A DNA stretch of 64,000 bases from Pseudomonadota bacterium (GTDB lineage: Bacteria; Myxococcota_A; Polyangia; Palsa-1104; JAEUJZ01): NCBI GenBank assembly GCA_035328405.1, contig DAOLIT010000010.1, positions 3,529 through 67,528 of the forward strand, written 5' to 3'. Under the pieces are notes generated by a model. That model had not been told where the DNA came from, searched no databases, and was given only the letters and a program-made list of their open reading frames with translations. This document shows positions 1,272-62,732 of this stretch, in pieces. Position 1 is the first letter of the stretch. Every line of letters begins with the position of its first letter. The translations under genes were made by a program, and so were the position numbers.

Positions 1272-1319
1272 GAAAAGCGCGCTTTTCGCCGGCAAAAAAA
1301 GAGTGTACATCCCGTTTCC

Positions 1320-44321: not shown

Positions 44322-44636
44322 CACCAGGCTTAGGGCAATCGGCGTGGGGCTTCGGGCAATTGGCGTGGGGGCTCGGGCAATTGACGTGGGGGCTCGGGCA
44401 ATTGACGTGGGGCTTAGGGCAATTTGCGTGGGGGCTCGGGCAATTGGCGTGGTTGCGCGGGCAATTGGCGTGGGGCTTCGGGCAATTGGCGTGGGGGCTC
44501 GGGCAATTGACGTGGGGGCTCGGGCAATTGACGTGGGGCTTAGGGCAATTTGCGTGGGGGCTCGGGCAATTGGCGTGGTTGCGCGGGCAATTGGCGTGGG
44601 GCTTCGGGCAATCGGCGTGGGGCTTAGGACGTTGTG
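44322..44636. repeat. 21-bp tandem repeat array (~15 units, gggcaattggcgtgggggctc-like) with 147-bp higher-order duplication
   Basis: Direct read. Units differ at a few positions (a/c at unit pos 9, ctc/ttc/tta, one variant 'ggttgcgc'). The 7-unit block is repeated twice nearly exactly. Lies between murC and the OLD-family gene; no spacers, so not CRISPR. Confidence 0.9.
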
Positions 44637-44643
44637 GTGGGGC

Positions 44644-46560
44644 TCATGGCGCGGTCAGCAGATCGAGCAGGGTTCGGATTTCCAAAGGAATGGCCCGATG
44701 GAGGTCCGGCAAGAGGTTTCGCTCTGCTTGCTCGACGATCTCGACCAGCGAACCCCGCAACGCAAAAGACCCCTTGGGCAACGTGTCGCGCAGCGCCTGC
44801 AGAAGAACGCGGGACCGGTCTTTTCCATGCTGAAAGACCGCCGGGTTTTCACGCACATCGGCGCGGGCCCGCTGGTTGGCGGTGTTTTCATCGAGCATCT
44901 TGCCGTCTTTGTCCGGGCGGCGATGCACCGCACGCCGACCATCGACCGCCTGATCTTCCAGGGCTCGGTCTTCGTCGGCCTTTTTCACCGCTGCGTCAAG
45001 CTGTGCCACAAGGTCCTCAGGCGCAAGGCGGATGTGCGGCGCAAGCCAAGCACTCAAACAGCGTGAGTCCAAAAACAGGCTCTCGATGCTGTGTCTAGAC
45101 CACGTAGCCTCCACCACCACGAGGTGGTTGGCCAGATTCGTGCTGGTGGGCGCTTTGGGTTCGCGGCCAAAGTCGCGATCTTTGACGAGGGCCGCTCTCA
45201 CCGGGACCCCGCTCTGCAAGGTGGGGAAGAGCGCAGGCGTGAGCAGTGCCTTCAACACGCCTTGGGCGCTCGCGTTGCCCACACCGTTGAGCGGAACGGG
45301 CGTGTAGTCCAAGAAGCGCTGCCAGCGATCCTGTTGATCTGCGTACAAGAGGCGAGCACAGGCTCGCAGAAACTTGTAGTCCGACGGCCCCTCGTAAAAA
45401 AGAACGCGACGAGACGCTAGAAAGTTCAAGGCCGTAAACGGCGTCAAATCACAGAAGGACCCAAGGGCTGCCACGATGTCAGAATCGTTGCGCAGCACAG
45501 CCACCGAAGGCGTGGCCTTTCGATCGACGTGAAGCAGCACAGCATCCCGGCGCTGTCCCAGGCGATTTGTCACCTCGACCGAGTGGGTGGCCAACACAAG
45601 CTGAACGCCAAACGTATGAAGCGCCAACTGGGTAAGCGCCTCGGCGGCCTCGGCCTGCAAACGCGGATGCAGATGCGCCTCTGGTTCATCGAGCAGAAAC
45701 AGGACGGGGCGGTTTTCGCTCTCTACTCGCTGCACCTGAAGGAGCTTCATCGCCGAAAACAGCGCAACAAGGTTGACCAGGCCCGAGCCCGCAGAAGACA
45801 GTTCCAGCTCTCCGTTGTCATCTTGAAAGTAGACGTGCAGATCGGCAGTGTTCTCGGCGTCGGCCTGCGCCGTTCTCCGCGTCAGGCGCGTCCCGAGCGG
45901 CGCAAGCAGCGTGCGGTTCAACTGCTCGAGGTCGGCGGCATCCAGTCGAGCAACCAAGTTCCGCACGATGTGGCTTTGATCGCCGCTGCCCAGCAACCGA
46001 GTCAACAGGGGACGCGACCGATGCTCCTCTGTCCGAATCACCCCATAGAACGCAGGGACAAACACAGACAGCGGATAGAGGCGCCCGAGGTCCATCTGCA
46101 GACGCGCTTTCACGTCCGATTTTCGAGCCATTCCCGATACCGATGCCAACGCCTGACGAGACCGTACCGCTACACTGCGCAAAAGCTGCCGGTTGCGTCC
46201 GTAGTGAAAGCTCACCCACAGTTCCTGGAGCGCATCTGTCTCATCGAAGGCCAGGGTGATGTCCAGGCTTGTGCCGTCCCCCACTTGCGCATGGTGAAAC
46301 AGTTGGGTCCAGTCGGACAAACCCACAAGCGCGCTCGGATCGGACACCACTTCCTTGCGAGAAGTCCAAATCCATCCGTCCGGGACTCGCTCTGGGAGGA
46401 ACGCGGCGGTCTGCGCCAGCGACTCACAAGCCAAACGGATCGCTTGCAGCACCGTGGATTTGCCCGAGCTGTTCTTGCCAATCAGCACGGTCACGTCGGA
46501 GAGATCCGCTTGAAACGCTGCAAAGCCTCGGTAGTTGGTGAGCTCGACCTTGCGTAACAT
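44644..46560 (-). CDS. OLD-family ATP-dependent endonuclease (ABC-type ATPase + TOPRIM), class-1 (solo)
   Basis: N-terminal 'LRKVELTNYRGFAAFQADLSDVTVLIGKNSSGKST' (Walker A), 'LFLLDEPEAHLHPRLQ' (Walker B/D-loop). C-terminal TOPRIM-like 'VLFYEGPSDYKFL' and 'VKDRDF' (DxD). Confidence 0.7.
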   Translation of the reverse strand: MLRKVELTNYRGFAAFQADLSDVTVLIGKNSSGKSTVLQAIRLACESLAQTAAFLPERVPDGWIWTSRKEVVSDPSALVGLSDWTQLFHHAQVGDGTSLDITLAFDETDALQELWVSFHYGRNRQLLRSVAVRSRQALASVSGMARKSDVKARLQMDLGRLYPLSVFVPAFYGVIRTEEHRSRPLLTRLLGSGDQSHIVRNLVARLDAADLEQLNRTLLAPLGTRLTRRTAQADAENTADLHVYFQDDNGELELSSAGSGLVNLVALFSAMKLLQVQRVESENRPVLFLLDEPEAHLHPRLQAEAAEALTQLALHTFGVQLVLATHSVEVTNRLGQRRDAVLLHVDRKATPSVAVLRNDSDIVAALGSFCDLTPFTALNFLASRRVLFYEGPSDYKFLRACARLLYADQQDRWQRFLDYTPVPLNGVGNASAQGVLKALLTPALFPTLQSGVPVRAALVKDRDFGREPKAPTSTNLANHLVVVEATWSRHSIESLFLDSRCLSAWLAPHIRLAPEDLVAQLDAAVKKADEDRALEDQAVDGRRAVHRRPDKDGKMLDENTANQRARADVRENPAVFQHGKDRSRVLLQALRDTLPKGSFALRGSLVEIVEQAERNLLPDLHRAIPLEIRTLLDLLTAP

Positions 46561-46620: not shown

Positions 46621-49056
46621 TTAGTAATCGAAACGGAGGCCCAGGTTGGGGAAGATCGGCAGGCCGACGACTCGGCCTTGTTGGTAGAGCTGGCGGCCTC
46701 CGTACAAGAGGCTTTCGGCGTTCTTGCGGTTGTACAGGTTCTGGATTTCCACATAGAAACCGAACCGAAAGCGCCGGAACAAAAACGTCTTGTCCACACG
46801 CACATCCAGCTGGTGAAAGTCCGGCAGGCGCACGGAATTGGGTTCCCCCGAAACGCCTTGGTAGTACTGCCCGGACACGTCGCGGAGGCCCCCAACAAGC
46901 TCGGTGGTGGGATTGCCGGTCACGTACCGGAACCGCGCCCCGCAAAGCAGCCCCCACGGCAATTGATAGGACAAGACGGCGGTCAAGATGTGCGTCTGGT
47001 CAAACCGAAAGAGCCGCCAAGGTTCCTCTGGGTGATCGCGCCGTTCGGAACGGGACAGGGTGTACGCCAAAAAACCCCACAGTCCCCGCCACAGAGGTTG
47101 ACGGGCCAGAAACTCGCCTCCGTACACACGCCCGAGCCCATCGTTGGAATACATCGTATGCGGATCGGACACGACGAGCTGCCGCAGGTCCTTGTAAAAC
47201 CCCTGTGCCTCTAGGTGCAGTCCCCCCGGCAAATCGGCATCCGCCCCCAATACATAGTGCGTGCCCGCTTGCCACGCGAGGTACGGATTCCCAAACAGAG
47301 GCGACAGCTCGGCCCCTTGCGGCGCTTGGTGATAGACCCCAATGCCTCCTTTCAAAAACAGCCTGTCCGGGACAAGCGTCGCGCGCAGCGTCAGCCTGGG
47401 CTCGACGAACAAAAGCGTCCGCGACACCGTGGTGAGGGCCGTCGCTTCACTGTCCTCCTCGCGACTGGGAATGCGAACATGGTCCGCAGACACCCGAAGC
47501 TGCGGCGACAATTCCAGCCGATTGTCGAACAGATGAAACCGCGCAATCAGATACGGAGACGTTTGCAGCAAGTGATAGAGGAGCAGCTCGCGCAGCACCG
47601 GCCCTGTGGAATCCGCGAAAAAACCGTCCCCAAAGAAACCATTTTCCGAACGGCCCGCGTCTTTCACCATGTCCGCTCCGCCGACCGGCAGGTTCTGGCT
47701 GTCTTGTGCCCCCTGCGCCAGCGGCATGAGCGTTTCGACTCGGGCGCGCACTCCCTCGAAGTCGAGTCCCAGCCCCACATCGAACCACTGCCGCCACTTC
47801 TTGTGAAATTCGCCGCGCAGGTTGTACCCAAGCTGAAGGACCTTGAGCGCCACCGGCTTGCCCCCCAACCCCTGATCCCCTGTCACCACCGAAAACGTGT
47901 CCCCCCCGATCGAAGGCATGAGCCACAGGACCGAATCCCCCGAAAAGCGATGGGTGTACCGCAAGCGCGCCCGGCCAAAATACGATTTGCTGTCGATGTG
48001 GACGCGGCTGTTGGGGTCGGGGTCGTCTACTTTCGCCGTGATGTTGCTGGTCGCTCCGAACACGAGCAGGTCCAGGTCGTCGCGCGGACCTGCGGCATAG
48101 TGCGCAGCCAGCTGGTAGTCCCAATAAAACGGAGAAAGCTGCGTGCTGCCCGAATTGAAAAGGGGCAAAAGCGCAGAAATCCAAGACACGCGCCCGCCCG
48201 CTGCGACGTGCAGTTTCTTTGTAACCGGGCCTTCGACCGTGACGCTCCCATCGATCAGGTCGAGCGTGATGGACCCGTGCCACCTATCGCTTTTGGGGCG
48301 GCGCGTGGCGACCTCGATCACCCCGCCCAGGCCCCTTCCGTAGTCGGCCCCGTACGCCCCCGGACGAAAGGACACGTCCGTCACAAACTCGGCGCTGATG
48401 GTCGAACGCACGCCGCCAAAGTGATAGACCCTCGGGATTTGCACCCCGTCCGCATAGACGCGGGTGTCCGATGGCGCAGAACCCCACACGACGATTTGCC
48501 CTCCTCCGAACGGCGCACGCGCGATGCCGGGCAAGTTCTGCATCGCTTTGATGGGATCGTTTTGTCCGCCCGGAATTTTCTTGAGCTCGGTCACAGACAA
48601 CGTGGTCGAGACGACCTCGCGGCGCAGCGGAGCGGCTTTGACGACCACCTCGAACGGATTGCCTTTGGGAGGCGCAAACAGCGTGATCTCAAGACGCCCC
48701 TTGGGCAGGTCCTGCTGGCCTTTTGTCGTCTGAATGCGCGCCGACCGCAGCGTCAAGTACACCGTCCCCGGCGCAAGACCGACAAGACGAAACCGGCCTT
48801 CCTCGTCCGTTTCCGTGACCACGGGCTTTTTGTCATCGGGCCAACGAGACACCGCGAGCTTCACAAAGGGCAGCGGGTCGCGCGTGCCTTGCTCTTTGAC
48901 GACGCCGAGGAATTCGCACAATTCCGAAAGCGGCGGAGGTTCGACTTCTTCTTCGCTTGGCGAGTCACTTGGCCGTTCTTCCGCCCGCACGACCTGCAAA
49001 AAACAAGCGACAAAACCAGGCACAAGCCACACAAGCCGAGCCAATCGTCCGCACAT
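46621..49056 (-). CDS. TonB-dependent outer membrane receptor (with N-terminal carboxypeptidase-regulatory-like domain)
   Basis: Signal peptide, plug-region 'DGVQIPRVYHFGGVRSTI', C-terminal beta-barrel ending '...LGLRFDY'. Confidence 0.85.
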   Translation of the reverse strand: MCGRLARLVWLVPGFVACFLQVVRAEERPSDSPSEEEVEPPPLSELCEFLGVVKEQGTRDPLPFVKLAVSRWPDDKKPVVTETDEEGRFRLVGLAPGTVYLTLRSARIQTTKGQQDLPKGRLEITLFAPPKGNPFEVVVKAAPLRREVVSTTLSVTELKKIPGGQNDPIKAMQNLPGIARAPFGGGQIVVWGSAPSDTRVYADGVQIPRVYHFGGVRSTISAEFVTDVSFRPGAYGADYGRGLGGVIEVATRRPKSDRWHGSITLDLIDGSVTVEGPVTKKLHVAAGGRVSWISALLPLFNSGSTQLSPFYWDYQLAAHYAAGPRDDLDLLVFGATSNITAKVDDPDPNSRVHIDSKSYFGRARLRYTHRFSGDSVLWLMPSIGGDTFSVVTGDQGLGGKPVALKVLQLGYNLRGEFHKKWRQWFDVGLGLDFEGVRARVETLMPLAQGAQDSQNLPVGGADMVKDAGRSENGFFGDGFFADSTGPVLRELLLYHLLQTSPYLIARFHLFDNRLELSPQLRVSADHVRIPSREEDSEATALTTVSRTLLFVEPRLTLRATLVPDRLFLKGGIGVYHQAPQGAELSPLFGNPYLAWQAGTHYVLGADADLPGGLHLEAQGFYKDLRQLVVSDPHTMYSNDGLGRVYGGEFLARQPLWRGLWGFLAYTLSRSERRDHPEEPWRLFRFDQTHILTAVLSYQLPWGLLCGARFRYVTGNPTTELVGGLRDVSGQYYQGVSGEPNSVRLPDFHQLDVRVDKTFLFRRFRFGFYVEIQNLYNRKNAESLLYGGRQLYQQGRVVGLPIFPNLGLRFDY

Positions 49057-49186: not shown

Positions 49187-49828
49187 TCAGCGCAACAGGC
49201 CGCAGTGCCGTCCAGTGCGGCGGGCTTCCTCGATCGCCTCCATGGGCGGCACCGGGCGAATCTCCCCCATCAAACCGTTTGGCAGAAGCTCGATGTCCAC
49301 AAACGAGGGATAGAAGTGACGGATCATGCGAACCATGTGCCGGTCTCCCTCGGAATAGGTCCGCACGAACGAAAAATTGCGGAACGGCCCGTCGTGCAGA
49401 TCCAGCAATTCCTGAAATGTGCCGTAATCGAGAAAACTCGCGATGTCCTTGGCGAGGCTGGGAAAGAAAATGAAGTTCCGAAACCGCGATTCATAGACCG
49501 CTTCTATTGGGGGAACAGCCTTGATCTCGCCCATGTATCCATTGGGCAAAATCTCGATGTCGGCGCAGGATTCTCCATACAGTTCGCTGACTCGCATCCA
49601 GTTTTTCCCATCGCGACAAAACCGTCGTTCAACCGCGAAATCACTTGATGGCCCATCGCTAAGAGAAAAAACTTCATCGAACGTGCCCAGGTCTTTCCAT
49701 TCCACGATCCGCTGAAGATCCCTGGGTCGCAACGTAAACGGCACAAGGTCTTCGGGCGGCGGGAGCCACCCAAACAAATCGTCCAACGGAGGGAGCGGTT
49801 CAAAGTCAGGCATGTGCAAAACCCCCAT
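49187..49828 (-). CDS. hypothetical protein with internal tandem domain duplication; candidate immunity protein for the adjacent toxin
   Basis: Two ~90-aa repeats (DGKNWMRVSELYGESCADIEILPNGYMGEIKAVPPIEAVYE / DRHMVRMIRHFYPSFVDIELLPNGLMGEIRPVPPMEAIEE). No signal peptide. Lies directly 3' of the toxin gene. Confidence 0.5.
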   Translation of the reverse strand: MGVLHMPDFEPLPPLDDLFGWLPPPEDLVPFTLRPRDLQRIVEWKDLGTFDEVFSLSDGPSSDFAVERRFCRDGKNWMRVSELYGESCADIEILPNGYMGEIKAVPPIEAVYESRFRNFIFFPSLAKDIASFLDYGTFQELLDLHDGPFRNFSFVRTYSEGDRHMVRMIRHFYPSFVDIELLPNGLMGEIRPVPPMEAIEEARRTGRHCGLLR

Positions 49829-49931
49829 CCAGGTTAGGTGGGTCGGTCAGGAAACAGAAGCAGTTTTCTGAGGGCAGGTCTTTGGGAGGCATCGCGTGGC
49901 TGCGCAAAGGAGTCCCGAAACAGAATCGCGG

Positions 49932-52900
49932 TCAGGGCTCGCGGTCGGGGTCCTCCATCGTGGACTGCACCGTTGGAACCCCATCGTCATCCAGAGAGGA
50001 AACCGTCCCCCCGCGCCCCAGCGCAGTTCGGCCCGAAAACGTCAGCTCCTGGTTCATTTGGAAGAACGGATCGTTGTGTTCGTCGCGCAGTCCTTGCGAG
50101 GCCGTCATCCCCATGCCCGTCGAAGGATCGTTGGATTCAAAGCGGCCCCGCAGTTGAATGTGTTGGAAATTTTTGCGTTCCTTGTTCCACCGGAGAAGCT
50201 GCGGAAGTTTGGCTTCCAACTCTGCCGCTTTGGCATCGGGAAACGTCTGCCGCAGGTTCGTAAGTTGCGCATTTCGTTCCGCGAGCGCGGCTTGCTGCAA
50301 GTCGTAGCCCATCGGAACTTGCAGTTTCTGAATCATCTCCGGCGTGAGCGTCGCTTCGAGCACACGCAAATTCTCCGCGCCGTCGGGATTGACGGTCGCC
50401 AGGCCACTAGACTCCCGGTTCACGTAGGGGTTTTTGGTCGGGTCGGCGGTCACGTAATCCAGGCCCAGGTTCTTGATGCGCTGGTCGGCGTTCATCCCCT
50501 CGGTGTTCTGGAGCAGACCCACATCCCCACTGACCGTCCAATTCGGGGTTCCCTCTTTGTAGAACTTGTCCGCCGTATCGCCGCCGATGACCTTGGCGAT
50601 TTTTTGCCCCGCTTGCACGTCCTCGAACAGCGCAATGTTCATTTTGAGCAGCAGTTTGAGTTCCTGGTCGGTCAGCTTGCCCCGCGTTTGTCCAAGCGCA
50701 TCGACTTCCGAGTGCGCCCCGATCGTCCGATGTTCCGTCGCGGGTTTGCCAGCGTTCGTCTGCGCTTCCAACTCGCGCGCCACGCTGTCGGGCATCGTCG
50801 CCTGCTGGTTCTTTTTGATGGTGCCCTTGAGCACTTCGATCTCGTCGGGCGTAAAGCCTTTGGACCGCAGCCGTTCTTCGACCGTGCTGGCTTTGGGCAT
50901 CGTCTTTGGATCGACGCCCAGCTCGGTCGCGAAACCCTGCAACGTGCGCGCTTCATCGACACCGAGCACAGAACCATCCGCTTTCTTCTGGCCTTCCGCC
51001 TTTTTGTGTTCCGCCTCAGCCGCCAGCTCGCGCAACGCCTGTTCGTCGCCCTTTTTCCGCGCCGCGATTTCCTGTTCCCACTGGTTGACCATTTCGTGGT
51101 CTTCAGTGGTCTTCGCCTGAGCGCGCAGATCTTCGAGAGCTTGCTCGTCTGCCGACAGCTTCCGCTTCGGACGCCCCTTGTCATCCAGGGTGCTCTCTTC
51201 ACCCACCCCAGCCTTGGCGTTCTTTTTGACTTTCGCGTCCGCTTCGGTGTCCTTGGCCTTTTCGCCCGATTCCGGTCCCACCGGCTTGGCCTGGTCCGTT
51301 TTGCCCTTCTCTTGCGCAGAAGCGTCCTGGCTCTTTTCGTGCGGATCGGCGGCTTTCCCGTCTGCCACATCTTGGGGTTTTACCGGGTGGTCGTCCTGTT
51401 TGGCTTCCTCGTGCCGCGTTTTTTCCTGGTCCGCCTGTTGCTTGCTTTCTTTCACCGCTTCTTCGGGCGCTTTTTCGTTTTTCCCCTTCTGTTTTTCGGC
51501 GGCCACCTCCTTGTGCACCTCGCTCACGTCGTCCTTGTCGCCCTTCTTGCTGTCGCCGTGCGCACCTTCCTCTGACCCCGCATCGCCCCCCTGGTTTTGC
51601 TCGGCCTTCGGTTTGTCTGGCCCCTGATCTGGGGTTTGAGCCTGCGCTTTTTTCGCTTCCTTCAGCTCCGCACGGGTCTCCGCGATGCTGTCGAGCGACC
51701 CCGAAAGTCCTGCACCACCCACCGACGTCACCCATTTCTTCGCGATGTCTTCGGGACGGCCAGAAAACATGCTGGGATCGAGCACATTGGCGGCGGTCTG
51801 GCCCGCTGCGCTGCTGCTTCCGCCCTTGATGGCCGAGAACATGTACGGATTCATCCCGTTTGGACCGTTTCCAAACGCTTTTCCCACGCCTGCGCTCGTT
51901 CCACCGTTCACAAAACTCGTCAGCATGCTCGAACCGACTTGGCTACCCATTCCTTTCACGAAGTCGCCAAAGTCCCCCTGGTAGTTTTGCTCGTTCATCA
52001 GTCCGCCCACCAAGCTGTTGATTCCGTTTTGCCCCGCGCTCGACAACCCCCCTTTCAACATCGTTTGCAGCATCGTCGCCGTCTTCGGGTCCGCAATCCC
52101 CACAAGCTTGTTGAGCTGTCCTTCCAGGCCGGGCAGTTTGAACGCACCTGCCGTCAGCGCGCTCGCCAGCGTCGTCACCGCATCCACCCCGATGTCTTCG
52201 AGCGCATATCCGCCCTCCAGCATCACCCCTTTGACCGCCATGCTGCTCGCTCCGCCTAGGAGCGCGGACAGCGCCGCCACCACCGCGGGAGACGCCGAGC
52301 CCGCCGTCGCAATCGAAACCGCTGCCCCCACCACCACCGCTGCGCCCGTCGCCACTGCGTTGGTCGCCGAATCCTTCGCCGCCTGGTAGTTCTGCACGTC
52401 CTGACCTTGGTATTCCGTCAGCACGCCCAACCGATCTTTGGCCGCCCCAGACCACGACCCGTCTTTTTGGGCTTGCTGGGCCAAGTTGTTGATTCGCTGG
52501 TGTTGGTAATCGAGCACTTGCCCAGAATCCGAAAACAGATCCGTCACACCGCGCGAGAACCAGTTGCTGCCGCTGCCGCGATCAAATTCGTAGGCCTCGT
52601 TCGCCCGCGACACCATTTCCTCTGGCGTTTCGGGTTTGCCTTTCATCATTTGGCCGATTTCAAAGCCGTCGCGCCCGCTCACTTCGCCTTTGAGCAACGC
52701 ATCCAAATCTTGTCCGTATTTCTCTTTGTACGTTTTCCGCAGCTCATCGATTTCTGTTTTGGACTTGCCTTCCAGCGTCTTGCGAATCAGTTCCTCATTC
52801 GTGCCAATCCCGTTCGTTGCATATTTCAGCGCAAACTCATCGCTGATTTTTCCGTCTTTTTTCAGTTGATTCGCTTTTTCCAAATCGAGCCCGGACAGCT

Positions 52901-54131
52901 CACTTTTCAGCATCTGGTCGAAATTCTGTCCGCCCGCTTTGTTGCCATATTGCTGGTTGTATTTGGCAATCAGTTGTTCGCGTTCTTTTGGCGATTTGCC
53001 CTCCATCGACTTGAAGATCGCCTCTTCGTCCGTGCCCCAAAAGTCTTCGGACGCTACTTTGACCCGAGCCGCTTCTGCCCCTGCCTTGTCGCCCTTGAGC
53101 AAATTCGACGCCACATCTTTTTCGGCCCCAGAAAACTCGCGCCCAAGCGCCTTGGTCAACGGTTCGCCCGTCTTTTTCTGGTACGCCGCCGCCAGCGCCT
53201 TGCGTTCTTTTTCGTCTTTGCACGATTCGATGGCGTCATACACCCCGTTTTCATCCGTCCCCAAACCGAGGTTGAGAAAACCGCCATTCATCGCTTCATC
53301 CAGCTTCACTGCTGCCGCTTTTGCTTTGTCCCCTTCAAGCAACGCTTTCGACAGTGCCAAATCGTTCCCGGACATTTCGCTTTTGAGCATCTTGTCCAGG
53401 CTCTGGCCCGTCTTCTTTTCATACGCCGCCACGATCTGTTTGCGCTGCGCTGGGTCTGTCACATTTTCCAGAACCGATTGAATTTTCTTCTCATCGGTTC
53501 CCATTCCAAACATTCCGCCATGGGCCGCATTGTCGAGCGCCGCAACCGCACTCTTGACCGGATCTCCCGACAGAGCCGCCTGCGCTTCTTCCAGGTCTTT
53601 GCCCCCCAGCTCCCCTTTGATGTCGTTGTCCAGGCTGCGGCCAAAGTGGTCCTGATACGCCGCTTTGATCGCTTTGACCTCCGCAGGAGACTTCCCTCGC
53701 AGCGCATTGTGAATGGCGTCTTCGTCGGTGCCCCAACCATCCATCGCCTTGAAAAGCTGGTTGGCCGAATCCCGAACCGCTTTCGGATCGATCGGTTTCT
53801 CCTCAACTGCCGGCGCCGCCTTTTTCGCGTCGAGCTTCGGATCGAGCTTCGGATCGAGCTTCGGATCGAGCTTCGGGTCAACTTGTGGACCACGCTTGTC
53901 CATCGGCTTGTCTGGCAACGCAGCGGGCAACTTCCCTGGCAACACCGGGCCAATCGGAGAAACGGGGTCGCCAGGTCCTCCAGGCCCCTTGGACGGCGGC
54001 GGCATTTTGTTGCCACCTCCGAACAAACTGGTCACTTTGGACCAAATCCCCTGCTCTCCGCCCTTCTGAGCGTCGGGCTTTTGCGTGGTCGGTTTGTTCT
54101 TGTCGCCCTGAAAAAAATCGAACAACGACAT
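49932..54131 (-). CDS. large annexin-repeat polymorphic-toxin-like protein
   Basis: ATG start (MSLFDFFQG; the tracked ORF begins at an upstream TTG, 54143). 5-6 annexin repeats with the endonexin motif (K-G-x-G-T-[38]-D/E; e.g. KAMDGWGTDEDAIHNALRGKSPAEVKAIKAAYQDHFGRSLDNDIKGELGG). Then a Gly/Ala-rich hydrophobic block, a K/E/D-rich linker and a ~400-aa C-terminal region. No signal peptide. Confidence 0.75.
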   Translation of the reverse strand: MSLFDFFQGDKNKPTTQKPDAQKGGEQGIWSKVTSLFGGGNKMPPPSKGPGGPGDPVSPIGPVLPGKLPAALPDKPMDKRGPQVDPKLDPKLDPKLDPKLDAKKAAPAVEEKPIDPKAVRDSANQLFKAMDGWGTDEDAIHNALRGKSPAEVKAIKAAYQDHFGRSLDNDIKGELGGKDLEEAQAALSGDPVKSAVAALDNAAHGGMFGMGTDEKKIQSVLENVTDPAQRKQIVAAYEKKTGQSLDKMLKSEMSGNDLALSKALLEGDKAKAAAVKLDEAMNGGFLNLGLGTDENGVYDAIESCKDEKERKALAAAYQKKTGEPLTKALGREFSGAEKDVASNLLKGDKAGAEAARVKVASEDFWGTDEEAIFKSMEGKSPKEREQLIAKYNQQYGNKAGGQNFDQMLKSELSGLDLEKANQLKKDGKISDEFALKYATNGIGTNEELIRKTLEGKSKTEIDELRKTYKEKYGQDLDALLKGEVSGRDGFEIGQMMKGKPETPEEMVSRANEAYEFDRGSGSNWFSRGVTDLFSDSGQVLDYQHQRINNLAQQAQKDGSWSGAAKDRLGVLTEYQGQDVQNYQAAKDSATNAVATGAAVVVGAAVSIATAGSASPAVVAALSALLGGASSMAVKGVMLEGGYALEDIGVDAVTTLASALTAGAFKLPGLEGQLNKLVGIADPKTATMLQTMLKGGLSSAGQNGINSLVGGLMNEQNYQGDFGDFVKGMGSQVGSSMLTSFVNGGTSAGVGKAFGNGPNGMNPYMFSAIKGGSSSAAGQTAANVLDPSMFSGRPEDIAKKWVTSVGGAGLSGSLDSIAETRAELKEAKKAQAQTPDQGPDKPKAEQNQGGDAGSEEGAHGDSKKGDKDDVSEVHKEVAAEKQKGKNEKAPEEAVKESKQQADQEKTRHEEAKQDDHPVKPQDVADGKAADPHEKSQDASAQEKGKTDQAKPVGPESGEKAKDTEADAKVKKNAKAGVGEESTLDDKGRPKRKLSADEQALEDLRAQAKTTEDHEMVNQWEQEIAARKKGDEQALRELAAEAEHKKAEGQKKADGSVLGVDEARTLQGFATELGVDPKTMPKASTVEERLRSKGFTPDEIEVLKGTIKKNQQATMPDSVARELEAQTNAGKPATEHRTIGAHSEVDALGQTRGKLTDQELKLLLKMNIALFEDVQAGQKIAKVIGGDTADKFYKEGTPNWTVSGDVGLLQNTEGMNADQRIKNLGLDYVTADPTKNPYVNRESSGLATVNPDGAENLRVLEATLTPEMIQKLQVPMGYDLQQAALAERNAQLTNLRQTFPDAKAAELEAKLPQLLRWNKERKNFQHIQLRGRFESNDPSTGMGMTASQGLRDEHNDPFFQMNQELTFSGRTALGRGGTVSSLDDDGVPTVQSTMEDPDREP

Positions 54132-54147
54132 CTTGCCCCCCAAAACG

Positions 54148-54205
54148 TTGTGCGTCGCGCCGTTGAGATTATCGTCTGGTTTCGACGCAAGTGTCTGTTT
54201 CGAGG
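54148..54205. promoter_or_regulatory. ~57-nt palindrome-containing element, copy A (immediately 5' of the toxin gene)
   Basis: ttgtgcgtcgcgccgttgagattatcgtctggtttcgacgcaagtgtctgtttc, with internal 7-bp inverted repeat TGCGTCG...CGACGCA. Near-identical to copy B at 58774-58830. Confidence 0.6.
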
Positions 54206-54410
54206 GAAGGTCGTGTTTGGGGAACTGGGTCTACGGAAGACCGTTTACCTACTGCGCATCGAGCCAGGACAGATCGCCCTCGAACAGGCACAGGTTCCTG
54301 TTGCCCGAGGTCTGGGACTCCCTTGGCCGAAGTCAGGGACTCCCTTGCAGGTTCCACTCCCGCCGTCTCCGCCCGAACTACCCCGGATAGGCATTCTCTC
54401 CATCCTGCCT

Positions 54411-54752
54411 TCAGTACCGGTGTTTCGTCGTCTCAATCTCCTCGACCTCGCGGGCACCCGCGACCGGGAGAATCTCGGTCAGCACCCTGTGCCGGGCGTT
54501 CGCCACGCGCTCGTCGTGCTCCATGTCCTCGGATTCGACCTTCAGGACCGCGTCGAGTATACCCTTGTAGTGATCGTAGAATCGTAGTCTTGCCTTGTCG
54601 CCGATGTCCGCACTGAGCCAGTCGTCCTCGTAGCGCCGCTCGGTGCTGTAATGGACCCAGGGGCGCTTCGTCGCCGGTTCGAGCAATTTCTTCAATCGAC
54701 CGAAATAGTCGTTGTCGGTCTTGAACCGCCAGGTGATGTAGGTCGTCTTCAT
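54411..54752 (-). CDS. small acidic hypothetical protein (candidate immunity protein for orphan cassette 2)
   Basis: 113 aa, begins 25 nt after the stop of the orphan cassette ORF, same strand. No signal peptide. Confidence 0.45.
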   Translation of the reverse strand: MKTTYITWRFKTDNDYFGRLKKLLEPATKRPWVHYSTERRYEDDWLSADIGDKARLRFYDHYKGILDAVLKVESEDMEHDERVANARHRVLTEILPVAGAREVEEIETTKHRY

Positions 54753-54776
54753 TCGTGCTCTCGCAATCTAGGAGTA

Positions 54777-56405
54777 CTAGTCCCTGTCGGGTCCAGTGTA
54801 CAGGGTCGGGGGCGTCGTGAACGGGTCGTTTCCAATGTTCAGCTTGAAGTCGAACAGCCCGTCCTTGTTTTTCGGATCTGCTAGCGTGGCCGGGTCATAG
54901 GCGCGCTGGTCCCATTCCTTGCCGTACCGGTAGAGATCGCCGCCCAGGTCGGTATTGGAGAACCCCGGCTTGCCGTCGGGTGAGCCGGTCTTGAAGATAC
55001 CGTAGTCGGCGTTGATCGGGTTGTCGATTTGCATCGCTCCGACCTTGGCCTGGTCGCTGAACACGGCGAGGTCGGTGTCGGATTCGGGCGTCCACGCGCC
55101 GCGCTGGAACCAATCCTCGTCGTTGCGTCCGCTACCATAGTGTTGCAGGAGCTTCATCGGGTTGTTCTTCCAGCCGGTGGTGCCTGAGCCGACCTGGACG
55201 ACCTGCATGTCGGTGATGCCATTACGGTCGGCGATGGCGGCGAGGCCCCCCTGGAAGTCGCGCATCTGCTCGGTGGCTCCGGCGAGATCGTTGACGTCGC
55301 CGCGTGCCCCCTTATAGGTCAGCGGCACCCGCTCGCCGTCCGCGTTTCCCTGGACCGCGAGCTTCAAGCGTTCGGCGGAGACATCGTTCGGGTGCTCGGC
55401 CTCGCCGCTTCGGACGCGCTCGTAGTTCGACTCGTTGAGCTTGCGCAAATGGTTGTGGGCGGCCTGGATGATCTCGTCGGGCGTCGAGCCCGATGTCAAG
55501 CCAGCGGCCTTTCCCGCCTCGCTGTTTACGAAGGCATCCATGCCATTGAACTCAAGCTGGTGCTTGTCGTGATCCTCCAGACTTATCTTCCCAGACGCGA
55601 AGAGCTCGGCTTCGCGCTCGCGGCTGAGGCGACCTTCCTTCGGCAGTACGTCGAGCTTGTCCATCGCCCACTTCACGGCCTTTTCAACCTCATTGGCGGA
55701 AGGCGGCAACTTCTTGGGCCCCTCCGCGTTGGAGACGTCCGCCGCAGTCAAGACGGCAGTCGTCTTGTCGTCATGAGTCTCGTCACCCAGGGTCGGCTTT
55801 GAGGTGTCCTCGGTCTTGGGTTTTACCGGGTGGTCGTCCTGTTTGGCTTCCTCGTGCCGCGTTTTTTCCTGGTCCGCCTGTTGCTTGCTTTCTTTCACCG
55901 CTTCTTCGGGCGCTTTTTCGTTTTTCCCCTTCTGTTTTTCGGCGGCCACCTCCTTGTGCACCTCGCTCACGTCGTCCTTGTCGCCCTTCTTGCTGTCGCC
56001 GTGCGCACCTTCCTCTGACCCCGCATCGCCCCCCTGGTTTTGCTCGGCCTTCGGTTTGTCTGGCCCCTGATCTGGGGTTTGAGCCTGCGCTTTTTTCGCT
56101 TCCTTCAGCTCCGCACGGGTCTCCGCGATGCTGTCGAGCGACCCCGAAAGTCCTGCACCACCCACCGACGTCACCCATTTCTTCGCGATGTCTTCGGGAC
56201 GGCCAGAAAACATGCTGGGATCGAGCACATTGGCGGCGGTCTGGCCCGCTGCGCTGCTGCTTCCGCCCTTGATGGCCGAGAACATGTACGGATTCATCCC
56301 GTTTGGACCGTTTCCAAACGCTTTTCCCACGCCTGCGCTCGTTCCACCGTTCACAAAACTCGTCAGCATGCTCGAACCGCTCAGCGCGTCCCTGTCTTGA
56401 GCCAA
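54777..56405 (-). pseudogene. orphan (5'-truncated) toxin cassette: homology block plus an alternative ~350-aa C-terminal domain
   Basis: Nucleotides ~55817-56380 are essentially identical to 51377-51945 inside the toxin gene (encoding SSMLTSF...EEAKQDDHPVKP). The reading frame then diverges into an unrelated C-terminal domain. No ATG/RBS at the 5' boundary (the tracked start is a TTG); the 5' end overlaps the upstream pentapeptide gene. Confidence 0.65.
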
Positions 56406-57124
56406 GCAGGAATCGTCGTCACATCAGGTGCAGGTCCGCCGTCGAAGTCGCCAGAAAAATCAGGGCTGATGATCTCACAGGCCCCTTCCATCACCGGTTC
56501 CCCCTGAACGCCATGAAACGCGCAGCGCTCGAACACTGCATCCTTGAGCTTCAGACCGTTGAAGTTGGCGCTGCGGAAATCGCACTGAACAAAGCGGGTC
56601 CGGTACGCGCTGCCTAGGGGCGGTCCCCCGGTTCGGGTGAGCTTCGCACCGCGAAAGTTGCAGTACTCGAACAAACTGTCATCGAAGGTCATGTCGTTGA
56701 GTTTTGCGCCGGTGAAATTGCAGCGGAGCGTGCGCGCTTCTGGAAAGGAGCTCCGATCCATGATCGCAAAAGAAAAATCCGAGTCGCTGATCATTCCACC
56801 GTCGTAGTCAATCATCGACAGCGTGCTGCCCACGAAGCGACAGCCTTCGATGCGAGCGCGCTCCAAGGCGCACATGCTCAAACTGGCGCGATCAAAGACG
56901 CAGCGAATGAGCTCGATTTCTTCAAAGCCGCACTGCTGAAACTGCGAATCACTGAGATCGCAGCTCACGAAGCGAGCGCCTAGAAAAATGCAACCGGCGT
57001 CGCGTGACTTACGGAACTCATGGCCTTCGAGATCGATGCGGCCCGCGCCGGTCTTTCCCCGCTCCAGCCACTGCCGATGTTCCCGTTGAACCTCTTTGGA
57101 GAGTTCGACTTGCCAGCTCAACAT
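56381..57124 (-). CDS. pentapeptide-repeat protein (candidate immunity protein for the deaminase-fold orphan fragment)
   Basis: Consecutive A(D/N)LxF-type pentapeptides (CDLSDSQFQQCGFEEIELIRCVFDRASLSMCALERARIEGCRFVGSTLS...). Starts 16 nt after the ADA-like fragment. Confidence 0.65.
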   Translation of the reverse strand: MLSWQVELSKEVQREHRQWLERGKTGAGRIDLEGHEFRKSRDAGCIFLGARFVSCDLSDSQFQQCGFEEIELIRCVFDRASLSMCALERARIEGCRFVGSTLSMIDYDGGMISDSDFSFAIMDRSSFPEARTLRCNFTGAKLNDMTFDDSLFEYCNFRGAKLTRTGGPPLGSAYRTRFVQCDFRSANFNGLKLKDAVFERCAFHGVQGEPVMEGACEIISPDFSGDFDGGPAPDVTTIPAWLKTGTR

Positions 57125-57139
57125 TGGGCCACCCTAAGC

Positions 57140-57550
57140 TCACTCCGCGTCCTGGTCAAGGCGTGCATTGTCCCGTGCGTCTCCGTCGGAAACCTGATCG
57201 CCGTAGGCGCTTGCGGACTCTTTTAGGAGGCTCATGCCCTGCGCGATTCGCGCCCGCTGCTCGTCTGACATCTGTTGGAAGTACTTCAGTTCTCCATCCA
57301 TCTCGATGGGGAAGCGGCCCTTCATATATGCCTTGAATAGCTGCTCGGCGCGCTTGTATTCCTTGCTGAGCGTGGTGTGCATCACCGAGTGCCCGTCGGT
57401 ACTGAGGATGGTTGGCACCCCCTCAGCAATCAGGTTGATGAGGGAGTGATTCTGGAAGGTGTTGTCGCGGCCCCCTCGTACCGGCTGGAGCGAGCCGGTT
57501 TGCTCGTTGCTGGTCAGGTTGACTTCCGCGTAGATCCCAAGCTCCTTCAT
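57140..57550 (-). pseudogene. orphan fragment encoding the C-terminal third of an adenosine/AMP-deaminase-fold (metal-dependent hydrolase) domain
   Basis: 'AEVNLTSNEQTGSL' ~ ADA 'CPxSNxxT' and 'VPTILSTDGHSVMHTTLSKEY' ~ ADA 'SINTDDP...EY'. Upstream (57590-57650) is a remnant of the toxin homology block in another frame (AAEKQNGKNEKAPDD) ending in a stop. Confidence 0.55.
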
Positions 57551-57671
57551 GCGCTTGATCTGCTCGGACGTTGCGTGCGTGGCATGACCGAAGCGATCTG
57601 GCTGAGCGCAGTGTCGTCGGGCGCTTTTTCGTTTTTCCCGTTCTGTTTTTCGGCTGCGACCTCACGGTCTG

Positions 57672-57975
57672 GGTGCCAGACTTGGTGGTCTTGGATCGGG
57701 CCTTGGCGGTCTTGGACCTAGACTGGGTGGTCTTGGACCTCGACCTGGTGGTCTTGGACCTAGCCTTGGCGGTCTTGGACCTAGACTGGGTGGTCTTGGA
57801 CCTAGACTGGGTGGTCTTGGACCGGGCCTTGGTGGTGTTGGACTGAGACCTGGTGGTCTTGGACCTAGACTGGGTGGTCTTGGACCGGGCCTTGGTGGTG
57901 TTGGACTGACACCTGGTGGTCTTGGACCTAGACCTGGTGGTCTTGGACGTGGCCTTGGCGGTGTTGGACCTAGAC
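57672..57975. repeat. 21-bp tandem repeat array x14 (ggtcttggacctagactgggt-like)
   Basis: Direct read of 14 consecutive 21-nt units with point variants. Open in several frames on both strands. Confidence 0.9.
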
Positions 57976-58140
57976 TTGGTGAAGGATCGCTCCCGATTTG
58001 TGAATCTGTGTTCACTTTTTGTGATGGAAAAACCACGCAATCCTGAAAAAAAATTGCTTTTTTTCAGCGTTTCCCTTGCGGCGCGAGATTTTTGAACTAC
58101 ACATGTGGCACTCGCACTCTGCGAGAAAGGAGACCGCCTC

Positions 58141-58635
58141 ATGGCCAAAGACCCAAAAAACCCTGTTCCCGGTGACCTCGCGATCGATTGCACGCCCATT
58201 GCTGACCTGATTGTGGACCTGCCCCCAGGTGCGATGACCGGCATGCGCAAAGAACGCGCAGGCCTCGACGCGCTGCTGACGGAGATTGCAGCCAATCAAA
58301 AACTCTTCGGGGTCCGAGCGGGCATTGTTGACGAGGAGGTGAAGGCGCTCGACAAGCTGACCGAGCAACTTCAGCACACCCGCAAATACAAAGAACCGCT
58401 GCGCAAACTGCTGGAGCTTGTCACCGAGACCGAAGCTGCCCTCGACAATGAGCGGCACCAGCGCATCAGCAGCATCGCCACAAGCGTTGAACAACGCGCC
58501 AAGATTCCCGGCAACGAGGACCTCATGAGTCTGTACCGAGCGACGCGCGAATACCGCTCTGCCGTCGGGAAAAAAGCGGCCCACACGCGCACCAAACAAC
58601 AAAAGAACGACCACGACCCCAAGCCCGCCGTCTAA
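58141..58635 (+). CDS. hypothetical coiled-coil protein
   Basis: RBS AAAGGAGA, start MAKDPKNPV. Ordinary composition, unlike overlapping Arg-rich ORFs. No recognised motif. Confidence 0.45.
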   Translation: MAKDPKNPVPGDLAIDCTPIADLIVDLPPGAMTGMRKERAGLDALLTEIAANQKLFGVRAGIVDEEVKALDKLTEQLQHTRKYKEPLRKLLELVTETEAALDNERHQRISSIATSVEQRAKIPGNEDLMSLYRATREYRSAVGKKAAHTRTKQQKNDHDPKPAV

Positions 58636-58773
58636 CAAACGAACGATGTAGCCCCTCGCCGACCCCCTAGGCCCTTCCCCGGCCCTTCCTGCTGTATCCC
58701 CCCGGCTGTACGCTCCCTTTTCCAAACGGTGTCTTCCGCACAGAGTCGATGTCTTTCCCACAAAAACAAACTT

Positions 58774-58830
58774 TGTGCGTCGCGCCGTTGAGATTATGGT
58801 CTGGTTTCGACGCAAGTGTCCGTTTCAAGG
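58774..58830. promoter_or_regulatory. ~57-nt palindrome-containing element, copy B (immediately 5' of the 58843 gene)
   Basis: ttgtgcgtcgcgccgttgagattatggtctggtttcgacgcaagtgtccgtttc; 2-3 mismatches to copy A; followed by RBS CAAGGAGA and ATG. Confidence 0.6.
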
Positions 58831-58842
58831 AGACCGCAGGCC

Positions 58843-59508
58843 ATGGGCAGTCCAAACATCGCGTATTTGCTCGGGGATACCCAAGCTGGGATTTCCACCT
58901 ACTTCGAGGCGGGAACGCTCCTGGCGCTAACCCAAGGCCCCGACCCCAAGCTGACGCAGTATCTCGCCACCGAGTTGGCTCAACTCCAAAGCACCTATCC
59001 AGCGGTCAAACGCGACTTGGCGCGTGTCGCGGCGGTGCTGCGCGTGTTTGGCCACGAACCTCCAAAAGAGCCGAAAATGCCGACCGACTTTCCGGTGTGG
59101 ACCCAAGCTGTCAGCAAGCAAGTCCACGCCGCGCTCGAAGAAGATCAGCCCGCATTTGCGCACTACTTGCTCGGATATGTACTCGGGGACGCTACTGCGA
59201 CGCTGCGCGTGCTTGTGTACGTTTCGGCGCTGCTCGGCTTTGTCCCGCAGGACAAACGGCTGCGCGACATCGAACAAAACGTGCTGGAAGCCCTGGAACG
59301 CGGCAGTGAGAAGCTCTCGCACCTGGCCCTCCATCCGGCGTTTTCCGGCGGAATGAAGCAGGTCCTGTCCCAGATGGTTCCGTGTGTGAATGGCCCCGCG
59401 CTTTGGGCGAGACAATCCGACTCGCCAGCAACAAAAACCGTCGCCAACACCCTTTCTGATTTTTTGCGGTTGCGAAAGCAGCTCGACGACGAACGCGAAA
59501 AGGCCTAG
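58843..59508 (+). CDS. hypothetical protein
   Basis: RBS AAGGAGA 8 nt upstream of ATG (MGSPNIAYLLGD). 221 aa, helical, no recognised motif. Confidence 0.5.
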   Translation: MGSPNIAYLLGDTQAGISTYFEAGTLLALTQGPDPKLTQYLATELAQLQSTYPAVKRDLARVAAVLRVFGHEPPKEPKMPTDFPVWTQAVSKQVHAALEEDQPAFAHYLLGYVLGDATATLRVLVYVSALLGFVPQDKRLRDIEQNVLEALERGSEKLSHLALHPAFSGGMKQVLSQMVPCVNGPALWARQSDSPATKTVANTLSDFLRLRKQLDDEREKA

Positions 59509-60506: not shown

Positions 60507-61571
60507 ATGAACCGACCGACCCAGCAGCCTCGTGCAGAAACTTCGCCGTCAGACGATGCCGTGCCGGTTCACGACGAGCCTCCCGAACACGCCGCGCCGG
60601 CCCTTTGGTCCGGTTTTTCTGACGATGAGCCGGAAACGCTGTTCGCGCTGTCTTCGGAGCGGCTGCAATCGGTGCTCGAAAGCTTGCTGTTTGCGTCGGA
60701 CAAGCCGCTTCCCACCGAACAGATCCACGATCTATTGGAAGAAACGGCAAAAGGTCCCGTCGAGAAAAGTGGGCCGCCGCTCTACACCCGGCAGACGATC
60801 GATGACGCATTGGGTGCGCTCGCCGTCGCGCTGGAAAAGCAAGGCCGAGGCATCGGTCTTTTGCAGGTCGCGGGTGGTTGGCAGCTTCGCACCGCTGTAC
60901 AAAACGCGCCGTTTGTGCAACGGCTGCTCAAACAAAAACCCGTGCGACTGTCGCGTGCGCAGCTTGAAACGCTGTCCATCGTCGCGTATCGCCAGCCGGT
61001 GACGCGACCCGAAATCGACGACATCCGAGGCGTGGATTCCGGCGCGGCGCTGCGGACGCTTCTGGACCGCAATTTGGTTCGCATTTTGGGCAAAAAAGAG
61101 GAACCGGGTCGGCCACTTCTGTGGGGCACGACGCGGGATTTTTTGGAATTTTTCCACTTAAAAGATCTGAAGGAATTGCCGACGCTGCGCGAGTATCAAG
61201 ACTTGTCCGACGAAGGCCGCGAGGCCGTACAAGCCGCTGGGTTCGAGCTGCCGACGCTGATTTCCCCGAAAACCGCCCATGCGGAATCGCCCGAGGTCGG
61301 CGAATCCGCCTCGACACCGAGCGACGAACGCGCTGGGGCCAAAGACACTTTTTCGGGTCTTTTGGAAAAACAGCTTGCCGACGATGCGGACAATTTGGCG
61401 CGCATCGACGAAATGATCCGCACCGTGCAGACCGCGTTTCCGCTGCTCGACCCGAACGCACACACCTTGACCCCTTCCCCGAAAAAACCTGAGCCGACCG
61501 AAAACGACGACGACGGCATGACCCACGACTTGGGCGCGACCCACGCGCACCACGCAGGAACACCCACATGA
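60507..61571 (+). CDS. scpB: segregation and condensation protein B with C-terminal extension
   Basis: Two winged-helix repeats: '[21 protein letters not shown]' and '[41 protein letters not shown]'. Confidence 0.85.
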
Positions 61572-62626: not shown

Positions 62627-62732
62627 CCGCAAACTCCGCAGCCACTTTTTTGAGTGAAACCAAGCGGACTTGTAGGCAGCCTCAGTTGGTTGTCGCGGAC
62701 GTGTGGTACCGTCGCGCGTGAGGTTTTGGGGG

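Follow-up and report, generated by a model that had tools for sequence, protein, structure and literature searches.

What does a tandem row of related coding units do in an uncultured myxobacterium when its largest member joins annexin repeats, a hydrophobic hairpin and an unfamiliar C-terminal (CT) domain in a single protein, and by which route could such a protein leave the cell? The question is raised by the minus strand of a Myxococcota metagenome-assembled genome (MAG), at positions 49187-58830 of the 64-kb stretch of contig DAOLIT010000010.1 analysed here as a whole (the window), where open reading frames (ORFs), their translations and a DNA self-comparison delimited the row. The locus is most probably a polymorphic toxin/immunity system of a Haliangium-related organism, comprising a full-length toxin gene with the toxin domain CT1, the predicted immunity gene imm1 behind it, an upstream orphan cassette (CT2 and Imm2) and the remains of a third cassette. 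The original prediction, made from the DNA letters alone, had proposed a myxobacterial locus of this kind, a reading upheld by ten related loci, by the co-occurrence of CT domains and immunity genes on unrelated carriers, and by the presence or absence of the CT2 cassette between strains. Among named organisms, Haliangium sp. UPWRP_2 has the protein closest to the carrier, a partial annexin protein with 84% identity, and the related genomic loci all came from Myxococcales or Kofleriaceae MAGs. An exact-sequence look-up of the toxin returned no contig.

The related loci were collected with a profile of the hairpin module, taking one genome per species. The full-length orthologues in L006-L008 (72% identity) keep both CT1 and Imm1, whereas L009-L013 are about 70% identical to the window protein only as far as aa 889-926 and then continue into a different C-terminus; in L001, homology ends at about aa 906. 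Because homology breaks off at these positions, and the orphan ORF2 of the window itself diverges at aa 919, the charged linker can be regarded as the break-point zone. Judged from these alignments, the N-terminal ~900 aa are a conserved carrier whose C-terminus is exchanged within the linker among relatives, the swapping that the original prediction had led one to look for. Each toxin domain likewise travels with its own small downstream gene, and the pairs recur on unrelated carriers. Among the features that define polymorphic toxins (Zhang/Aravind 2012), a constant N-terminus with a variable C-terminus, a co-varying downstream immunity gene and orphan cassettes sharing the junction were all found, while neither Pfam nor the signal-peptide check detected a recognisable trafficking or secretion domain in the toxin.

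The alternative C-terminus of L009-L013 ends in '...AAQGF..YDPSLPY(T/S)PASTGL...', and a related ending occurs in a giant eCIS_core protein of L014. In L009 (4654-6366), as in L010-L012, it is followed by a conserved ORF of ~570 aa and by no small immunity-like gene; neither the L009 toxin, its annexin repeats aside, nor the ~570-aa ORF matched any Pfam family.

The toxin ORF (49932-54143, minus strand) comprises 1403 codons from a TTG and encodes 1399 aa from the ATG at 54131. Its first 115 aa are rich in Pro and Lys, are probably disordered and hold two conserved short motifs, MS[LIF]F[DG][FW][FL].G and G[IFL][WF]S.[VI]T..FG.G.K.P; this leader might serve as a signal for export or loading. 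Its DPKL repeats are encoded by a perfect 12-nt tandem repeat (53824-53879, 3.9 copies), and the near-identical orthologue of the sister strain L005 (P0006, 1387 aa) is 12 residues shorter overall, with a different reading across the DPKL stretch. The repeats behind the leader are bona fide annexin repeats, as had been claimed: PF00191 matched with an E-value of 4.8e-45 (151.9 bits against a cut-off of 25) in five stretches, so that of the five or six repeats first counted, five stand and the sixth does not. The motif GxGT occurs at aa 132, 209, 289 and 441 and, as the variant FWGT, near aa 366, giving four canonical G.GT[DN]E repeats and one FWGTDE, each with E at +39/40. An acidic residue ~39 positions after GxGT is the signature of a type II Ca2+ site, and all five such signatures are intact.

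Annexin was the sole Pfam family in the toxin, with no match to PAAR, RHS, LXG, WXG, haemagglutinin, MafB-N or eCIS_core; the earlier statement that the protein lacks PAAR, Rhs/YD, LXG, WXG and haemagglutinin repeats, as well as a signal peptide, was thus correct. Hydropathy and composition also bore out the Gly/Ala-rich hydrophobic block and the charged K/E/D linker described at the outset. The hydrophobic hairpin at aa 588-638 (ATGAAVVVGAAVSIATAG-SASP-AVVAALSALLGG, positive on the Kyte-Doolittle scale) has an AGxASP turn, and its module is homologous to residues 1270-1571 of the distant relative P0010 (independent E-value 8e-16), with invariant columns in alignment A4. The Gly/Ala/Ser-rich block extends to about aa 850 (G 16%, A 15%) and is followed by the linker, the composition of which over aa 851-1050 is K 17%, E 15%, A 15% and D 10%.

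The C-terminal domain CT1, in which no motif had been recognised, indeed matched no Pfam family, either by itself or in a scan of 20 members of its own family, and had no PDB sequence relative, whether searched as a sequence or as a profile. It is rare: a full HMMER scan of 1.84 billion proteins yielded 27 representatives, which identifies the zero returned by a word-indexed homologue search as a false negative. An AlphaFold2 model built from a 20-sequence alignment (A2) reached a predicted local distance difference test (pLDDT) score of 91.1 and a predicted template modelling (pTM) score of 0.90, and consists of an N-terminal helical subdomain and an alpha/beta core. Its best structural matches were Tne2-Tni2 (PDB 6b12) and SPN-IFS (3pnt), together with the Rhs ADP-ribosyltransferase (ART) toxins 6xtd and 7zhl; TreTu, CopC, DarT, pertussis toxin S1, CARDS, Scabin, heat-labile enterotoxin and TccC3 were also listed. 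The proteins from TreTu to TccC3 are all NAD-using toxins of the ART fold. Foldseek comparison of the model with PDB and BFVD returned no significant match.

In CT1 numbering, K140, G162, G172, G183-L-D185 and P296 are invariant in alignment A2, and N320 and E322 are nearly so (at least 90% of sequences). The model places N320-x-E322 directly before a beta-strand, with K140 and S161-G162-D163 on two preceding core strands. This placement of N320-x-E322 resembles that of the [QE]xE motif of ARTs, the correspondence being assigned by eye and without a residue-level structural alignment; in CT1 as in toxins of the NADase/ART fold, an acidic residue precedes the strand equivalent to ART beta5. The model makes it fairly likely that CT1 has an ART-like fold and suggests an NAD+-directed enzyme, either an NAD+ glycohydrolase or an ADP-ribosyltransferase, with K140, S161-G-D163 and N320-x-E322 as candidate catalytic residues. 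With this likeness to NAD-using enzymes, CT1 does not agree with the idea of a toxin that damages membranes, and for the annexin part an accessory role in membrane binding or entry is more likely.

Imm1 is, as first noticed, internally duplicated, being a tandem duplication of a ~105-aa domain with halves that are 38% identical (E 2e-17). It follows CT1 in the window and in the L005-L008 orthologues, and its assignment is extended by L004 and L016, in which CT1 homologues (34-40% identity) are each directly followed by a single-domain Imm1 relative matching both halves. For L004, the E-values were 6e-8 and 8e-6 against the halves within the full-length protein, and 5e-9 and 9e-7 against the separated halves; for L016 they were 1e-5 and 3e-4. 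Tne2-Tni2 and SPN-IFS are likewise toxins paired with a dedicated immunity protein. SPN acts on host cells, yet requires its immunity factor, and the presence of Imm1 is therefore uninformative as to whether the target is bacterial or eukaryotic.

CT1 is also found at the end of P0010, a 2392-aa protein with eCIS_core and annexin domains, and of short proteins with an MFDFL-type leader. In P0025, P0028, P0023 and P0029, a distant CT1-like domain lies mid-protein and is followed by a second effector domain: an EndoU nuclease, a calpain-type protease or, by motif only, a lipase-like (GHSLGG) or nucleotidyltransferase-like (GS..DLD) region. Some distant CT1-like proteins carry an N-terminal SPFH/Band 7 domain, with the conserved CT1 residues kept. 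The match to P0024, a 5104-aa Ig-repeat protein, was discarded as spurious, being summed over repeats.

The second cassette provides the closest view of module exchange. Positions 51370-51936 and 55814-56379 are 99.8% identical over 567 nt, and ORF2 shares 186 identical residues with the toxin (aa 734-919) before diverging into CT2, which is followed by the 113-aa ORF of Imm2; the claim that a second cassette reuses the linker region with a different C-terminal domain thus holds. ORF2 has 542 codons from a TTG, is annotated by NCBI as 530 aa from the ATG at 56369, and is identical to P0001 ('MAG TPA hypothetical protein PKE31_04140'), an NCBI protein from a 'Pseudomonadota bacterium' MAG, for which an exact-sequence look-up likewise gave no contig. 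Among 5.8 billion proteins, CT2 had two homologue clusters (P0004, 85% identity; P0005, 60%); it had no PDB sequence relative, and its AlphaFold2 model from three sequences was poor (pLDDT 52.8). An impression of a nucleotidyltransferase-like 'GSG...DxD' pattern gained no significant backing, NTP_transf_2 giving a non-significant E of 0.2 and no profile match linking CT2 to the nucleotidyltransferase-like region of P0029. Relatives of Imm2 directly follow both CT2 homologues (73% identity in L002, 27% in L003); the protein had been described as acidic, which its isoelectric point of 6.5 does not bear out.

In L002, CT2 is borne by P0004 on a different, helical N-terminus of ~150 aa, beside FtsK_SpoIIIE and WXG100-like genes. 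Region 303-6164 of this locus (JGI 3300006092; GC 58.5%, like the window), which probably comes from an organism related to that of the window, may be a type VII-like cluster, with the order 937-aa FtsK_SpoIIIE ATPase, 92-aa WXG100-like protein, 298-aa protein, helical N-terminus with CT2 toxin, and Imm2 homologue. Its WXG100 match (E 2.2e-4, 21.9 bits) falls below the Pfam cut-off of 27.3 bits.

Comparison with the strain-level relative L005, which is 96-99% identical to the window and collinear save for 54298-56379, shows sharp junctions around the CT2 cassette. L005 holds 478 unrelated nt in its place, with a 153-aa ORF (L005 3396-3857). Of that ORF, the window retains no more than the final ~13 codons, near 54260-54297, which places the gain of the cassette in the window lineage; the event appears to be recent and to have overwritten another small ORF. 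No relatives of the 153-aa ORF were detected; it may be another orphan immunity gene. The copy of the 567-nt repeat in the main gene is 98.2% identical to the orthologous L005 stretch and 99.8% identical to the orphan copy of the window, and this greater closeness of the two copies to each other than to L005 suggests recent copying or gene conversion. The repeat provides a substrate for homologous recombination with the main gene. Self-comparison of all related loci fetched revealed no other orphan repeats.

The third cassette, as originally described, held up in part: its 247-aa pentapeptide-repeat gene is intact and kept in L005, but it is otherwise reduced to a 50-nt carrier-linker remnant and a deaminase fragment, out of frame with each other. 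The fragment (136-159 aa) matches positions 213-295 of the 330 in PF00962 (E 4.5e-5, 23.1 bits against a cut-off of 27) and PDB 6iv5 with E 0.014, which corresponds to the last ~40% of the fold; the N-terminal half, in which the HxH site for the metal would lie, is missing, and a stop codon and unrelated sequence lie upstream. A metagenome scan found no relatives of the fragment. By its sequence, this cassette is a decayed remnant without a usable module, and the pentapeptide-repeat gene is, by position only, probably its orphan immunity gene.

A possible trace of a further unit is the second copy of the 63-nt element that lies directly upstream of the toxin start. In a consensus scan of the 49-59 kb region, the sole two sigma-70-like matches fell inside the two copies of this element, the one before the toxin reading CAGACA-18-GATAAT at 54197-54168. 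No matching toxin ORF lies downstream of the copy at 58768-58830, which may be the promoter relic of an upstream paralogue. Plus-strand ORFs at 58141-58635 and 58843-59508, called as genes in L005, lie between the orphan copy and a 21-nt array; the former, tested as 58105-58635, had no Pfam match.

Table 1. Features of the toxin/immunity locus, with positions in the window.
Feature	Position	Strand	Basis
Imm1, predicted cognate immunity protein, 213 aa	49187..49828	-	Duplication; co-occurrence with CT1
Full-length polymorphic toxin gene, 1399 aa	49932..54131	-	ORF, translation; orthologues
CT1 toxin domain, aa 1041-1399 (~360 aa)	49935..51011	-	Predicted fold, alignment
K/E/A/D-rich low-complexity linker, aa 851-1040, C-terminus exchange zone	51012..51581	-	Composition; homology breakpoints
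567-nt repeat, main-gene copy (aa 734-920)	51370..51936	-	DNA self-comparison
GKPETP / helical / L.EY..QD segment, hairpin, Gly/Ala/Ser-rich amphipathic block	51582..52616	-	Hydropathy, composition
Five annexin repeats, aa 116-505	52617..53786	-	Pfam PF00191; motif positions
N-terminal leader, aa 1-115	53787..54131	-	Alignment of window protein, L006, L008, L009, L011, L012, L013
63-nt 5' element directly upstream of toxin start	54143..54205	-	94% identical copy at 58768-58830
Strain-variable CT2 cassette (repeat + CT2 + Imm2 + 113 nt)	54298..56379	-	Sharp junctions versus L005
Imm2, predicted CT2 immunity protein, 113 aa	54411..54752	-	Follows CT2 homologues
Orphan ORF2, 5'-truncated carrier (copy of main aa 734-919) fused to CT2	54777..56405	-	Translation
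CT2 toxin module, ~335 aa (ORF2 aa ~208-542)	54780..55784	-	Homologues P0004, P0005
Pentapeptide-repeat protein, 247 aa, intact	56381..57124	-	Pentapeptide_4 PF13599 2.4e-20; Pentapeptide PF00805 1.6e-19
Truncated adenosine/AMP-deaminase-like toxin remnant	57140..57619	-	PF00962 part match; stop just upstream
50-nt carrier-linker remnant	57614..57663	-	92% identical to 51460-51509 and 55903-55952
Second 63-nt element copy, no toxin gene behind	58768..58830	-	94% identity; promoter-like match 58822-58793

The remainder of the window consists of ordinary genes, among them AcrB, a Ser/Thr kinase, an OmpA-family protein, DnaJ, an enoyl-CoA hydratase, a MurC-like ligase, ScpB, a TonB-receptor-like protein and an OLD/GajA-like ATPase. 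The last of these, two genes downstream of the toxin locus, encodes a 638-aa AAA_15/AAA_21 protein (44644-46560, minus strand) with strong PADLOC matches to AriA, GajA and Old (best 2e-29), and looks like a defence-type gene of the OLD family that stands alone. It is kept in L005 and is not beside the homologues in L006-L013. Neither this ATPase nor the TonB-dependent-receptor-like gene (46621-49056) was counted as part of the system, both being kept only in the strain-level relative and not beside other homologues.

Three separate tandem arrays with a 21-nt period were also seen, at 44327-44625, 57678-57981 and 62452-62523, with unrelated unit sequences and, in two of the three, a 63-nt super-period. 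The first occupies the intergenic space between the MurC-like gene and the OLD-like ATPase. The second, of which L005 has a different copy number, closely precedes the deaminase remnant when read in the minus sense; the third lies within a 742-aa ORF (61196-63424, minus strand).

Annexin-bearing toxins of this lineage have been described before. Zhang et al. (2012) listed annexin as a repeat in Haliangium toxins delivered by Photorhabdus virulence cassettes (PVCs), alongside Ntox3 or a lethal-factor-like peptidase, and proposed it as an accessory domain that helps to breach target membranes (PMC3482391). Kodavali et al. (2014) reported Haliangium proteins combining DUF4157, annexin and toxin domains, and annexins with transmembrane segments (PMC3894181). 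Geller et al. identified DUF4157 as a marker of extracellular contractile injection systems (eCISs), N-terminal to toxins with long linkers (PMC8213781), and eCIS_core is the PVC-metallopeptidase that marks toxins loaded into eCISs (PMC3482391, PMC8213781). The combination of features had at first been called unseen, which does not stand in view of the 2012 and 2014 reports: fusions of annexin and toxin domains were already published for Haliangium in 2012, and the locus introduces no new principle.

Like the PVC/eCIS annexin toxins of Haliangium ochraceum, which belong to the same lineage, the window toxin has its annexin region N-terminal to an enzymatic toxin that varies, and it has a long linker and a constant N- with a variable C-terminus; some of those proteins have predicted transmembrane segments. 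P0010, L014 and L015 have exactly the Haliangium-type DUF4157 and annexin architecture and share the annexin-hairpin module. The window toxin differs in having no metallopeptidase domain, a distinct conserved leader, and five annexin repeats where those toxins have one or two; it also has adjacent immunity genes, upstream orphan modules and a documented strain-level gain, and its CT1 and CT2 lie outside the toxin families modelled in Pfam. With the contact-dependent inhibition (CDI), Rhs and MafB systems it has in common a conserved carrier, a homologous junction, variable CT and immunity genes, 5'-truncated spares and strain variation in cassettes. However, membership of these systems was rejected, as their defining domains are lacking: there is no haemagglutinin, RHS/YD, PAAR or MafB-N domain and no junction motif of the VENN or PxxxxDPxGL type. 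The cassettes are also not displaced in the CDI/Rhs manner that had been suggested, since the orphans lie upstream of the full-length gene here and downstream of it in CDI/Rhs loci. A SitA or outer-membrane-exchange toxin was rejected for want of a lipoprotein signal, and a PAAR/prePAAR effector of a type VI secretion system for want of both PAAR and an Eag-type chaperone gene.

Under the preferred reading of an exported polymorphic toxin, the following sequence of events can be proposed. After release from the producer, the annexin repeats would bind anionic phospholipid of the target membrane in a Ca2+-dependent manner, the hairpin and the Gly-rich block would insert into that membrane, and the long linker would let the C-terminal enzyme reach the target cytoplasm. 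There CT1 would act on NAD+ as an NAD+ glycohydrolase or an ADP-ribosyltransferase, while Imm1, as a tandem-duplicated binder, would block CT1 in the producer and its sister cells.

Several observations weigh against this reading. No secretion-system gene was found among the annotated ORFs of the window, the contexts around P0008 and P0017 were too short to reveal one, and the 1399-aa toxin has neither the hydrophobic core of a signal peptide nor an HExxH motif, nor any PF13699 (eCIS_core) match in Pfam. Internal CT1-like domains placed before EndoU, calpain-type and lipase-like domains would also fit a non-toxic adaptor role. Moreover, because the orphans lie upstream, simple direct-repeat recombination would delete the carrier and produce no toxin swap; only unequal exchange, with duplication, would be expected to create a full-length carrier-CT2 gene.

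As to the export route, loading into an eCIS is the leading candidate, because distant relatives of the carrier start with eCIS_core: the domain is found at the N-terminus of P0010 (3.4e-10) and of the giant proteins of L014 (9.7e-21) and L015 (7.1e-27), the annexin-hairpin module of the latter two being ~25% identical to that of the toxin. The toxin would then be cargo of a PVC-type eCIS, with the leader replacing DUF4157 as the loading signal and the protein injected through the tube; the annexin and hairpin parts would act inside the target or at its membrane, the target possibly being a eukaryotic grazer. This proposal remains tentative and falls short of an even chance. In its favour, the three homologues with N-terminal eCIS_core are independent, annexin is enriched in eCIS loci and DUF4157 toxins have long linkers (PMC8213781), the known loading signals lack a consensus, being short polar N-termini (bioRxiv 10.1101/2023.11.13.566157), and the P0010 gene adjoins a divergent AAA ATPase gene. 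It is opposed by the lack of eCIS_core and HExxH in the toxin itself, by the annotated ORFs of the window, none of which was seen to encode a sheath, tube, baseplate or AAA protein, and by a 1399-aa cargo with a hydrophobic hairpin being an awkward passenger for a tube. PVC-type toxins, furthermore, often have no immunity genes (PMC3482391), and such genes are present here.

Alternatively, the protein might deliver itself in the manner of colicins or AB toxins, being released by lysis, in vesicles or by a myxobacterial route such as the Tad-like Kil apparatus. The annexin repeats would then serve receptor binding, and the hairpin with the Gly-rich block autonomous translocation, without any injection machine. 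The order of receptor-binding, hydrophobic, linker and enzymatic regions is complete, Pfam finds no known trafficking domain, and the window-type leader is unlike DUF4157. A precedent is the annexin, Pyocin_S and Colicin D protein of Burkholderiales JOSHI_001, in which several annexin repeats and a membrane segment likewise precede a bacteriocin-type toxin (PMC3894181). That protein, likened here by its description only, differs in that its translocation domain can be recognised as that of a pyocin and its toxin is a colicin D nuclease (PMC3894181). Self-delivery is doubtful: it is pure inference, no homology to characterised translocation domains was found, and no lysis gene lies nearby. Its most specific form is improbable, namely that the window-type subfamily (MSxFxxF leader, five annexins and a hairpin/Gly-rich block, without DUF4157) constitutes an autonomous annexin-based delivery device, which would combine an unrecognised myxobacterial export route via the leader, Ca2+-dependent binding to anionic lipid, self-insertion, and two undescribed warheads, CT1 as a divergent ART-fold family containing Lys, and CT2 with its two homologue clusters.

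A type VII-like route and an intracellular defence role are both unlikely, each with a very low probability. As an intracellular module, the system would be a membrane-anchored toxin-antitoxin or abortive-infection device, whose annexin repeats sense Ca2+ or membrane damage and unleash the NAD-depleting domain. NAD+ depletion is a common effector logic of defence systems and would fit CT1, the toxin has no secretion signal, and the OLD/GajA/AriA-like ATPase lies two genes downstream; however, no PADLOC model matched any toxin or immunity protein of the locus, the ATPase is not beside the L006-L013 homologues, and the locus has the hallmarks of an exported polymorphic toxin in its swapped C-terminus on a constant carrier, its orphans and the recurrence of its C-terminal domains on carriers with eCIS_core or WXG links. 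Export as a WXG100 / FtsK-SpoIIIE substrate is suggested by the L002 protein, the CT2 of which (85% identity) sits immediately downstream of the FtsK_SpoIIIE ATPase and the 92-aa WXG100-like protein, yet the L002 carrier is a different one, its WXG100 match is below the cut-off, the toxin has no WXG/LXG-like N-terminus, and the window has no such ATPase.

Myxobacteria are predators with poorly mapped killing toolkits. For this group, the locus provides a clear case of toxin modules exchanged in nature, in an uncultured lineage resembling Haliangium, and it defines two uncharacterised toxin/immunity families: CT1/Imm1, probably NAD-directed, and CT2/Imm2, shared with a carrier linked to WXG and FtsK-SpoIIIE genes. 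Among the traits that set it apart from the annexin toxins described before are a metallopeptidase-free carrier with a distinct leader, a delimited hairpin module and two toxin families that are not in Pfam. The conserved annexin and hydrophobic-hairpin carrier occurs both with and without the eCIS marker domain, a contrast that lets the role of bacterial annexin repeats, and the need for DUF4157 in loading, be tested.

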